Source: Escherichia phage HannyBb. From it: a stretch of 45,272 nucleotides of DNA. Each line of letters opens with the position of its first letter. Within the stretch, counting starts at the first letter, position 1. The stretch lies in the sequence record PP925841.1. One strand, 5' to 3'. The notes under the pieces are model-generated. The model was not told the origin of the DNA. It saw only the letters and a list, made by a program, of their open reading frames with translations, and did not search any database. Both the position numbers and the translations under genes were made by a program. Positions 30,006-30,606 of this stretch are shown one piece after another.

Positions 30006-30034
30006 AATTTAGTTTTCTCATTGTTTTTCGTCAA
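30006..30034 (-). promoter_or_regulatory. Candidate leftward early promoter (pL-like)
   Basis: Minus strand reads TTGACG-N17-TAAATT (-35 at 30029-30034, -10 at 30006-30011) about 70 nt upstream of ydfA; operator-like repeats overlap and flank it. Confidence 0.4.
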
Positions 30035-30042
30035 GGTTTTTT

Positions 30043-30064
30043 GATGAGAAAACTCAAGTATTGG
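30043..30064. promoter_or_regulatory. Candidate operator OL (repressor site)
   Basis: GATGAGAAAACTCAAGTATTGG shares GAGAAAACTCAA..TATTGG with the site at 30578-30599; a partial inverted copy (AGTTTTCTCATTG) lies at 30011-30023 in the promoter spacer. Confidence 0.4.
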
Positions 30065-30121
30065 CGCAAGATAAAGCCAATACATTGAAATGTAAGGCTT
30101 TAAAATTTTGTGAAGGGATGA

Positions 30122-30529
30122 TTATTGATGCTTGTTGCGTTTGCGAGCCTCTAATAGCTCGGTGAACAGGCGATTAAAATTCTCAACGCGGGCGCGGAGT
30201 TCGCTGAGTTGTGCTTGTTGCTCTGATTTAGGAAGTGCGCGATACAAACGCAGCATCTCTAACTCATCTTCCGATAAGTCTAAGGCACTATCGAGTGAAA
30301 CAGGGGGAGCTGGTGTTTTGTCCTCGTCGCCAAACAGTATCCAGGTTGGTGAACATTGCAATACCTCGGCGAGGCGATGCAAATTTTGCCCGCGCGGGGC
30401 TGTATGGTCACTTTCCCATAATGAAATTGATGAGCCAGATACGCCAGCAGCTTTGCTTAAACCGTTTTGACTTAAGCCTACCTGCTTACGTCTTTCTCTA
30501 ATGCGTTGACCTAAAGTTTTCTCGTTCAT
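30122..30529 (-). CDS. CI-type prophage repressor (DicA-like, XRE helix-turn-helix)
   Basis: 135 aa from MNEKTLGQRIRERRKQVGLSQNGLSKAAGVSGSSISLWE (XRE-type HTH) with a DicA-like C-terminal block (LQCSPTWILFGDEDK); divergent from the cro-like gene. Confidence 0.8.
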   Translation of the reverse strand: MNEKTLGQRIRERRKQVGLSQNGLSKAAGVSGSSISLWESDHTAPRGQNLHRLAEVLQCSPTWILFGDEDKTPAPPVSLDSALDLSEDELEMLRLYRALPKSEQQAQLSELRARVENFNRLFTELLEARKRNKHQ

Positions 30530-30550
30530 ATTTAGATATCTTAATAACCC

Positions 30551-30578
30551 TTGACTTGAGATTCCTTGAGTTATTAGC
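30551..30578 (+). promoter_or_regulatory. Candidate rightward early promoter (P_R-like)
   Basis: TTGACT (30551-30556), 16-nt spacer, TATTAG (30573-30578), immediately upstream of the operator palindrome and the cro-like gene. Confidence 0.4.
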
Positions 30579-30599
30579 ATTGAGAAAACTCAATATTGG
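30578..30599. promoter_or_regulatory. Candidate operator OR
   Basis: CATTGAGAAAACTCAATATTGG contains the palindrome TTGAGAAAACTCAA, lies between the divergent repressor and cro-like genes, and shares its core with the OL candidate. Confidence 0.45.
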
Positions 30600-30606
30600 A
30601 GGTGCG

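Follow-up and report, generated by a model that had tools for sequence, protein, structure and literature searches.

A DicA-family repressor and TTGAG-AAAA-CTCAA-type palindromes as the probable immunity switch of Escherichia phage HannyBb

What is the role of a short motif that is repeated at both ends of a repressor gene in Escherichia phage HannyBb, and which protein recognises it? The question concerns positions 30,006 to 30,606 of sequence record PP925841.1, a stretch of 45,272 nucleotides that was analysed as a whole and is called the window here; positions count from its first letter. An initial annotation had described a core sequence followed by TATTGG beside two divergent early promoters and had taken it for the left and right operator regions (OL and OR) of a CI-type repressor. 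By its sequence, the window is a mEp460/Qin-like lambdoid phage of E. coli, and the locus is very probably the immunity switch of this phage, in which a repressor of the DicA family would act on palindromes of the TTGAG-AAAA-CTCAA type. The copies of the repeated motif are almost certainly the places at which the repressor binds and silences the prophage.

Both copies of the motif were found where they had been reported and with the letters described, GATGAGAAAACTCAAGTATTGG at 30043-30064 and CATTGAGAAAACTCAATATTGG at 30578-30599, and the inverted element at 30011-30023 reads AGTTTTCTCATTG, the reverse complement of CAATGAGAAAACT. The exact 13-mer TGAGAAAACTCAA is present only at 30045-30057 and 30581-30593 in the whole 45 kb window, and the search for further copies returned one with a single mismatch on the minus strand (30008-30020), together with a further palindrome at 30530-30545. 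An exact 13-mer common to both intergenic regions was obtained in none of 1000 dinucleotide shuffles, where the longest shared word was 12, and only 8 of the 1000 shuffles gave a 14/16 match between the two regions. Five copies of the 9-mer GAGAAAACT are present in the window, where 0.45 would be expected; 0 of 100 shuffles reached this number, and four of the five copies fall inside 30011-30590. Matches to the palindromic form ATTGAG-N4-CTCAAT with at most two mismatches begin only at 30007, 30530 and 30579, all of them in the immunity region. The fourth copy of GAGAAAACT (30515-30523, minus strand), which covers repressor codons 3-5 (E-K-T), was considered as an operator. Buttiauxella, in which the protein begins MNEM, does not conserve it, and this copy was therefore set aside as probably coincidental.

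Three strong sites of the form 7+4+7, all with an AAAA centre, were identified at the two early promoters. The predicted main operator of OR (Oc/OR1-like), ATTGAGAAAACTCAAT, lies at 30579-30594, is a perfect 6+4+6 palindrome (as an 18-mer, CATTGAG-AAAA-CTCAATA) and is kept in Buttiauxella. It begins in the last two bases of the −10 element of the rightward promoter PR, the equivalent of dicCp in the K-12 prophage Qin, and covers the start-site region. The promoter scan placed PR on the plus strand at 30551-30580, with a −35 element TTGACT (30551-30556), a spacer of 18 nucleotides (nt) and a −10 element TAGCAT (30575-30580); the −35 is unchanged in the relatives, and the aligned −10 in Buttiauxella reads TAGTAT or TATCAT. 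The arrangement TTGACT-N16-TATTAG that had been proposed for this promoter was therefore not retained, since the spacer in front of TATTAG (30572-30577) is 15 nt, the scan prefers TTGACT-N18-TAGCAT, and TATTAG is replaced by GATTAG in all four close relatives. The position of the OR operator is the same as that of the experimentally tested Qin operator Oc, TTGTTAGTCATAACTAACAA (PMC3441716). In Qin, Oc binds DicA in vivo, single-base changes in Oc abolish the action of DicA, and DicA at Oc represses dicC and activates dicA (Yun et al., PMC3441716).

On the other side of the repressor gene, the scan confirmed the leftward promoter PL (the Qin dicBp equivalent) on the minus strand at 30006-30034, with −35 TTGACG (30034-30029), N17 and −10 TAAATT (30011-30006), as the initial annotation had it. 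The −35 of PL (GTCAA on the plus strand) and the block TAATTTAG are conserved in related cassettes. The candidate OL-proximal operator, ATTTAGTTTTCTCATT (30007-30022; the reverse complement of AATGAGAAAACTAAAT, minus-strand AATGAG AAAA CTAAAT), overlaps the spacer and the −10 element of PL and shows, in inverted orientation, 14/16 identity to the OR site. Its GTTTTCTCA is unchanged in mEp460 and in two Buttiauxella loci, and a cassette-specific palindrome occupies the same position in six other cassettes. The element formerly described as an extra inverted half-site at 30011-30023 is thus present, but as a full 16-bp site over the PL −10, and it is probably the site that occludes PL. The candidate OL-distal operator, GATGAGAAAACTCAAG (30043-30058; GATGAG AAAA CTCAAG), is located upstream of the PL −35, its centre 36 bp from that of the proximal site; TGAGAAAACTCA within it is unchanged in Buttiauxella, and equivalent sites exist in other cassettes. 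Within OR, a weak middle element, CTTGAGATTCCTTGAG (30555-30570), has one good half-site beside the −35, and its centre is 24 bp from Oc and 25 bp from a palindrome that resembles Qin Oa (30530-30545). Only the first TGAG of this element is conserved in Buttiauxella, where the second TTGAG is changed to TTGCG, and a clear operator copy occupies the same position in the PPompW and Klebsiella cassettes.

The core of the motif thus stood as a shared operator, but its TATTGG extension did not. The two copies of TATTGG are shifted by 1 nt in register, one contig of the same immunity type reads TACTGG (30596 T>C), and Buttiauxella has ATATCGGG, ATGTGGAG, GGTTTGGAG and GTGTTTGGAG instead. The OL copy of TATTGG supplies one arm of the hairpin repeat at 30058-30083, and the OR copy extends into the Shine-Dalgarno sequence of the cro-like gene. 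As a separate observation, about 10 nt following the OR site and the OL-distal site resemble each other in several cassettes (30595-30604 and 30059-30068 here), as in GGTTTGGAG versus GTGTTTGGAG in B. gaviniae and ATATTGGAGG versus GTATTGGCGC in the window. This likeness points to an old duplication of OR1 along with its ribosome binding site or, alternatively, to a repressor that prefers particular flanks.

The evidence that these palindromes serve as operators comes from related loci. K-12 Qin matches the flanks of the region at 97-99% identity, but not ~30001-30705, and since this part alone differs from Qin, the operator regions, the repressor gene and the first 33 cro codons constitute a swapped immunity cassette. 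Seven cassettes with differing repressor N-terminal domains were compared (the window, Qin, E. coli C25/B, PPompW, Klebsiella phage ST405-OXA48phi1.2, phage BUCT708 and Cronobacter phiES15), and the best 16-mer common to OR and OL was searched for in each of them without bias. These best 16-mers have 13-14/16 matches and occupy equal places in the seven cassettes (9-15 nt before the cro ATG, over the PL −10 and upstream of the PL −35), although the sequence is specific to each cassette; the OR 18-mer of the window matches its own OL at 15/18 positions and foreign OLs at 10-12/18. A scan of one genome per species yielded relatives of the window cassette in Buttiauxella ferragutiae and B. gaviniae, whose repressors are 76% and 74% identical to that of the window, respectively, and have the same recognition helix, S[GD]SSISLWES (residues 31-40 in P22 C2 numbering). 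In both, TTGAGAAAACTCA is retained at all three sites while the intergenic surroundings have diverged. The assignment of OL and OR to the divergent early promoters is supported by this comparison, because the seven cassettes share the places of the sites and Buttiauxella keeps TTGAGAAAACTCA. In the repressor of Citrobacter braakii, which is 67% identical, the helix is SHATISLWES and the sites are altered, for example to TTGTTAAATAAACTCAACAA. Among ~100 loci, every helix with Gln37 was paired with a TTAG-N6-CTAA core, and only helices with Leu37/Ser40 were paired with TTGAG/CTCAA. The operator sequence therefore changes together with the recognition helix of the repressor between phages that are otherwise homologous. 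A scan of viral contigs gave only TTAG-type cassettes and no further window-type ones. Among four close relatives, single-nucleotide polymorphisms (SNPs) are found at 29960, 29994, 30003, 30023, 30037, 30476, 30572 and 30596; none of them falls inside any of the four palindromes or the promoter hexamers, whereas the SNP at 30572 destroys TATTAG and that at 30596 alters TATTGG. On a more speculative and rather unlikely reading, Leu37/Ser40 would mark a natural change of specificity in the P22 C2 fold, TTAG giving way to TTGAG, with C. braakii as an intermediate. The C25/B and PPompW cassettes share the helix AHVTISQWER and have different outer operator bases (TGTTAGA and CCTTAGG), so that part of the specificity must lie outside helix 3.

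These comparisons bear on two explanations that would deprive the motif of a repressor. The shared 13-mer might be a neutral relic of an old duplication, or of a recombination joint at the edges of the cassette. The similarity of OR and OL-distal beyond the palindrome in several cassettes resembles shared ancestry, and the left boundary of the cassette (~30001) adjoins the proximal site. However, a relic would not account for a core that is kept at all three Buttiauxella positions amid diverged surroundings and avoided by the SNPs of close relatives, nor for sites that are palindromic, lie on promoter elements and have their own equivalent set in every heteroimmune cassette, and this explanation is scarcely credible. 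The motif could also be an A-tract for a host factor or a signal at the level of nucleic acids, such as a bend, a site for Fis, H-NS or IHF, the U-tract of a terminator or the context of a ribosome binding site. In agreement with this, the OL-distal copy, read on the minus strand, gives a run rich in U behind a hairpin where the repressor gene ends, and the OR copy belongs to the cro leader, immediately in front of the Shine-Dalgarno sequence. The three copies nevertheless differ in transcript context and orientation, and a site for a host factor would not vary with the immunity type, whereas these sites are cassette-specific and track the recognition helix of the repressor. There is accordingly almost no probability left for a host signal.

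The repressor gene occupies 30122-30529 on the minus strand and encodes a DicA-family protein of 135 amino acids with a P22 C2-like N-terminal helix-turn-helix region and a short C-terminal domain. The protein matches the NCBIfam model DicA NF007257 over residues 1-135 of 135 (E = 7.8e-72, 239.4 bits, cut-off 101), and its residues 1-72 match the N-terminal domain of P22 C2 (1adr, E = 8.3e-16; 2r1j, E = 4e-15). An upstream start, which would give a product of 152 amino acids, was rejected because the extension is not conserved as coding in the relatives and the family models align from Met1. In Pfam, only helix-turn-helix families were matched (residues 6-71), with HTH_3 at residues 10-64; no match to the S24 peptidase domain was obtained, and the Phage_CI_repr helix-turn-helix family stayed below its cut-off (18.5 versus 22). 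The description of a CI-type repressor was thus right about the role of the protein but not about its type, which is DicA/P22-C2-like and lacks the LexA/CI peptidase domain. This domain content already contradicts a literal lambda-CI-like switch, in which a two-domain, RecA-cleavable repressor would bind three cooperative operators per side. The divergent gene layout and the three palindrome-like elements of OR, placed ~24-25 bp apart as in lambda and P22, are what such a switch would present. The numbers of sites do not agree with it, since only two OL sites are detectable and the middle OR element is weak. In Qin, moreover, the Ala-Gly cleavage site is missing from DicA (PMC10448788), DicA did not bind the other two of the three predicted OR sites, including Oa (PMC3441716), and a rem gene is present, as it is here. 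A literal copy of the lambda switch is consequently extremely unlikely.

A third explanation retains the palindromes as operators but assigns them to the Cro-like protein only, the repressor acting elsewhere or through other sequences. The cro-like gene (30607-30834, plus strand) encodes 75 amino acids, is preceded by a Shine-Dalgarno sequence GGAGG (30598-30602) and belongs to the DicC/P22_Cro family (NCBIfam DicC NF007282, 167.6 bits, cut-off 130; Pfam P22_Cro PF14549, E = 6e-17). Its recognition helix, DPSAVSQWQE, is close to that of P22 Cro. The swapped cassette includes the helix-turn-helix region of Cro, so the specificity of Cro changes together with the sites, just as that of the repressor does. 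On the other hand, C. braakii shares the Cro helix of the window (D[PR]SAVSQW[QK]E) and differs from it in the repressor helix and in the OR and OL sites. The equivalent site in Qin is the one at which DicA binds in vivo and single-base changes abolish the effect (PMC3441716), and the 7+4+7 geometry suits the P22 C2-type domain of the repressor (PMC4267663). Recognition by Cro alone is thus very unlikely.

The palindrome adjacent to the repressor start raises a related question. This Oa-like element, ATTTAGATATCTTAAT (30530-30545), abuts the repressor ATG and matches the main operator at 12/16 positions, each half-site carrying one symmetric substitution. The window, mEp460 and both Buttiauxella loci have it in identical form; in C. 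braakii, whose repressor operators differ, a single base of it is changed. ATTTAGATATCTTAAT is similar to P22 operators, and the Cro proteins of the window, mEp460, Buttiauxella and C. braakii all have a P22-Cro-like recognition helix. In lambda, the repressor and Cro share all operators. The targets of the two proteins might instead be largely separate here, the TTGAG-AAAA-CTCAA sites being read by the repressor only and ATTTAGATATCTTAAT being a Cro site that silences the leaderless repressor transcript, a tentative proposal that is rather unlikely to hold. When Oa was compared with the Cro helix across the ~100 loci, it was almost constant within each of only two classes, and this comparison is uninformative because a shared promoter function would explain the constancy of Oa equally well.

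Taken as the immunity switch of a Qin-like phage, the locus would work as follows; binding, start sites, activation and the route of induction are what we infer from the letters and from Qin. Dimers of the repressor would bind palindromes of 16-18 bp, (C/T)ATTGAG-AAAA-CTCAAT(A). Occupation of 30579-30594, over the −10/+1 region of PR, would shut off the cro-like gene, the ydaT-like gene and the replication genes, and by analogy with Qin the repressor bound at OR would probably also stimulate its own transcript. The sites at 30007-30022 (over the −10) and 30043-30058 (upstream of the −35) would bracket PL, and repressor bound there would shut off the ydfA-dicF-dicB-exonuclease-xis-int operon. 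The palindrome at 30530-30545 probably holds the −10 element of the repressor promoter and is the likely place at which the Cro-like protein, or an excess of repressor, lowers repressor synthesis. Because the repressor has no autocleavage domain, induction would be expected to proceed through the phage antirepressor Rem, or by the switch flipping stochastically or under stress, rather than through RecA-mediated cleavage.

Several points weigh against this scheme. The support for the cassette comes entirely from comparison, and this comparison does not separate binding of the repressor from binding of Cro. Since Qin DicA bound Oc only, the functional sites in the window may be fewer than the palindromes. 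The middle OR element is poor and half conserved. The 36 bp between the OL sites correspond to ~3.4 helical turns, a distance at which cooperative binding on the same face of the helix is not obviously favoured, and OL-distal lies upstream of the core promoter, with cooperativity, a roadblock or the tail of a terminator as possible roles. The candidate repressor promoter is without a recognisable −35, and the ATG lies at the 9th base after its −10 candidate, just at the limit of what is usual.

How the repressor transcript begins can be approached through the same homology. The initial annotation had placed the repressor ATG about 13 nt after TATTAAG, but the distance from the end of this sequence (30546-30540, minus strand) to the ATG is 10 nt. 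The −10-like TAAGAT (30543-30538, minus strand), inside the Oa-like palindrome and 8 nt before the ATG, fits the aligned −10 of the relatives better. In the TTAG-type cassettes, TAGAAT or TAGCAT is found 6-9 nt before the repressor ATG, with no Shine-Dalgarno sequence, which is also absent before the repressor ATG of the window. Qin dicA is among five K-12 mRNAs with a leader of <10 nt (PMC4681348), and dicA is listed as a known leaderless gene (PMC8794815). The short-leader or leaderless mRNA suggested earlier is thus supported by homology, because Qin dicA is experimentally leaderless, and the repressor transcript would start at the ATG or a few nt away from it, without a ribosome binding site. 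After the repressor stop, an inverted repeat GTATTGGC-N10-GCCAATAC (30058-30083, minus strand) is a candidate weak terminator. Folding of the RNA from 30030-30125 (minus strand) gave z = −2.8, with a best structure that uses an overlapping alternative hairpin, and the terminator scan did not flag the 30058-30083 repeat, so that a role of the repeat as the terminator of the repressor transcript is weakly indicated.

The genes around the switch follow the order expected for this phage group. The repressor and cro-like genes are 77 bp apart, and the ydaT-like gene follows the cro-like gene. Under PL are encoded ydfA/DUF1391 (29774-29929, minus strand) and the DicF RNA (28885-28936, minus strand; Rfam), and further leftward are the dicB/ydfD region, 98.6% identical to K-12, and a RecE-like exonuclease. 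The leftward leader (29930-30000, minus strand) is conserved across heteroimmune cassettes and genera and contains two palindromes, ACACCG-CA-CGGTGT and CCCC-GGCGTTAA-GGGG; in Buttiauxella and Citrobacter the first of these is replaced by a different sequence that is yet palindromic, AATCACT...AGTGATT. RNAalifold support for a conserved RNA structure in this leader is weak. Antisense to the leftward operon and at the position of Qin ydfC, a hydrophobic open reading frame (ORF) of 106 amino acids (29215-29535, plus strand) had no Pfam match; the annotation of the Qin-site prophage of E. coli STEC2018-607 lists it as hypothetical.

A rem homologue and candidate antirepressor was located at 34682-34933 (plus strand) as an ORF of 83 amino acids, collinear and 98.5% identical with the annotated rem stretch of the same prophage. 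No LexA box (CTGT-N8-ACAG) was found near rem, the sole match in the window being at 43458. Just upstream of rem lies a hok/sok module (Rfam sok at 34141-34315, with a Hok ORF within 34253-34465). The late region contains two cspA-type thermoregulator leaders (Rfam RF01766; 39563-39955 and 42454-42870), and the corresponding region of the related STEC2018-607 prophage carries the annotated cold-shock genes cspB and cspI. The window looks circularly permuted, with terminase and head genes at 97-6754. Its segments 1-7100 and 24078-37169 are collinear with the STEC2018-607 prophage in permuted order, the packaging and head genes coming first and then integrase through lysis; a packaged or circularly permuted genome would give such an order.

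This immunity type is common in E. coli. The region 29700-30900 is 98.6% identical to Escherichia phage mEp460_ev081, which carries dicAC, dicBF and rem (Ragunathan & Vanderpool, PMC10448788), and 796 of 5426 complete E. coli genomes contain this region over at least 80% of its length; in one of these genomes, the cassette is found in a Qin-like prophage next to rspB. Two contigs with a 100% identical repressor are labelled as Bacillota and Veillonella parvula metagenome-assembled genomes and are almost certainly mis-binned E. coli phage DNA. The switch would govern prophage induction and also DicB and DicF, two toxic inhibitors of division, and knowledge of its operator helps to predict superinfection immunity between Qin-like prophages. 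A search with the motif string and mEp460 found no description of these operators in the searchable literature. The operator sequence and the recognition helix that matches it may therefore be new; the architecture is already known, that of an ordinary phage immunity switch, and the current picture of lambdoid switches is unchanged. The family of P22 C2 would gain a natural pairing of helix and half-site, and the repressor and its operator form a pair that should not cross-react with that of Qin.

Among known systems, the closest is Qin itself, whose locus has been described as laid out like OR and OL of lambda (Ragunathan & Vanderpool, PMC10448788). The parts of a Qin-type module that were found in the window are a DicA-family repressor, a divergent DicC gene, the ydfA-dicF-dicB operon, a predicted operator at the position of Oc together with leftward sites, and rem. 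The two loci share the gene families (DicA and DicC) and their order, with ydfA-dicF-dicB leftward, the repressor, and cro/ydaT rightward, and also the positions of the operators relative to both promoters, a repressor start without Shine-Dalgarno sequence and the presence of rem, whose product relieves DicA repression in Qin (PMC10448788). They differ in the ~705 bp (30001-30705) that are replaced here, in the recognition helix of the repressor (SGSSISLWES versus SHVSVSQWER in Qin), in the operators (TTGAG-AAAA-CTCAA versus TTAGT-N4-ACTAA) and in the helix-turn-helix of Cro. Further, the window is an apparently complete phage genome, whereas Qin is a defective remnant.

The immC region of P22 is related through a homologous N-terminal domain of the repressor and a Cro of the Pfam P22_Cro family. 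The operators of P22 and the sites described here are 18 bp long, of the form 7+4+7, with an A/T-rich centre that is uncontacted in P22; the P22 repressor contacts positions 2-7 and 12-17 of its site, not 8-11, and binds best when the centre is an A-tract (PMC4267663). In contrast, P22 C2 has 216 amino acids, a cleavable C-terminal domain and is RecA-inducible, while the repressor of 135 amino acids has no such domain; the half-site is ATTTAAG in P22 and (C/T)ATTGAG here, and P22 has three operators per side. With lambda, the locus shares the logic of a divergent repressor and cro, operators over PR and PL, a repressor mRNA that probably has a very short leader or none, and a repressor gene that is read leftward, like the operon under PL. 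Apart from the generic helix-turn-helix, no sequence relationship to lambda can be detected; the peptidase domain is absent, the number and spacing of the sites differ, and induction would be expected to occur via an antirepressor. Short, non-cleavable repressors in the position of lambdoid cI are also known from GfoR/GfhR of the Gifsy prophages and PaaR2 of CP-933P. The PaaR2 mRNA is leaderless (PMC8630535), and the Gifsy repressors are inactivated by an antirepressor, according to work cited in PMC10448788. As described, these repressors belong to other protein families and have other operators, and they resemble the DicA-type switch of the window in the place and the size of the repressor.

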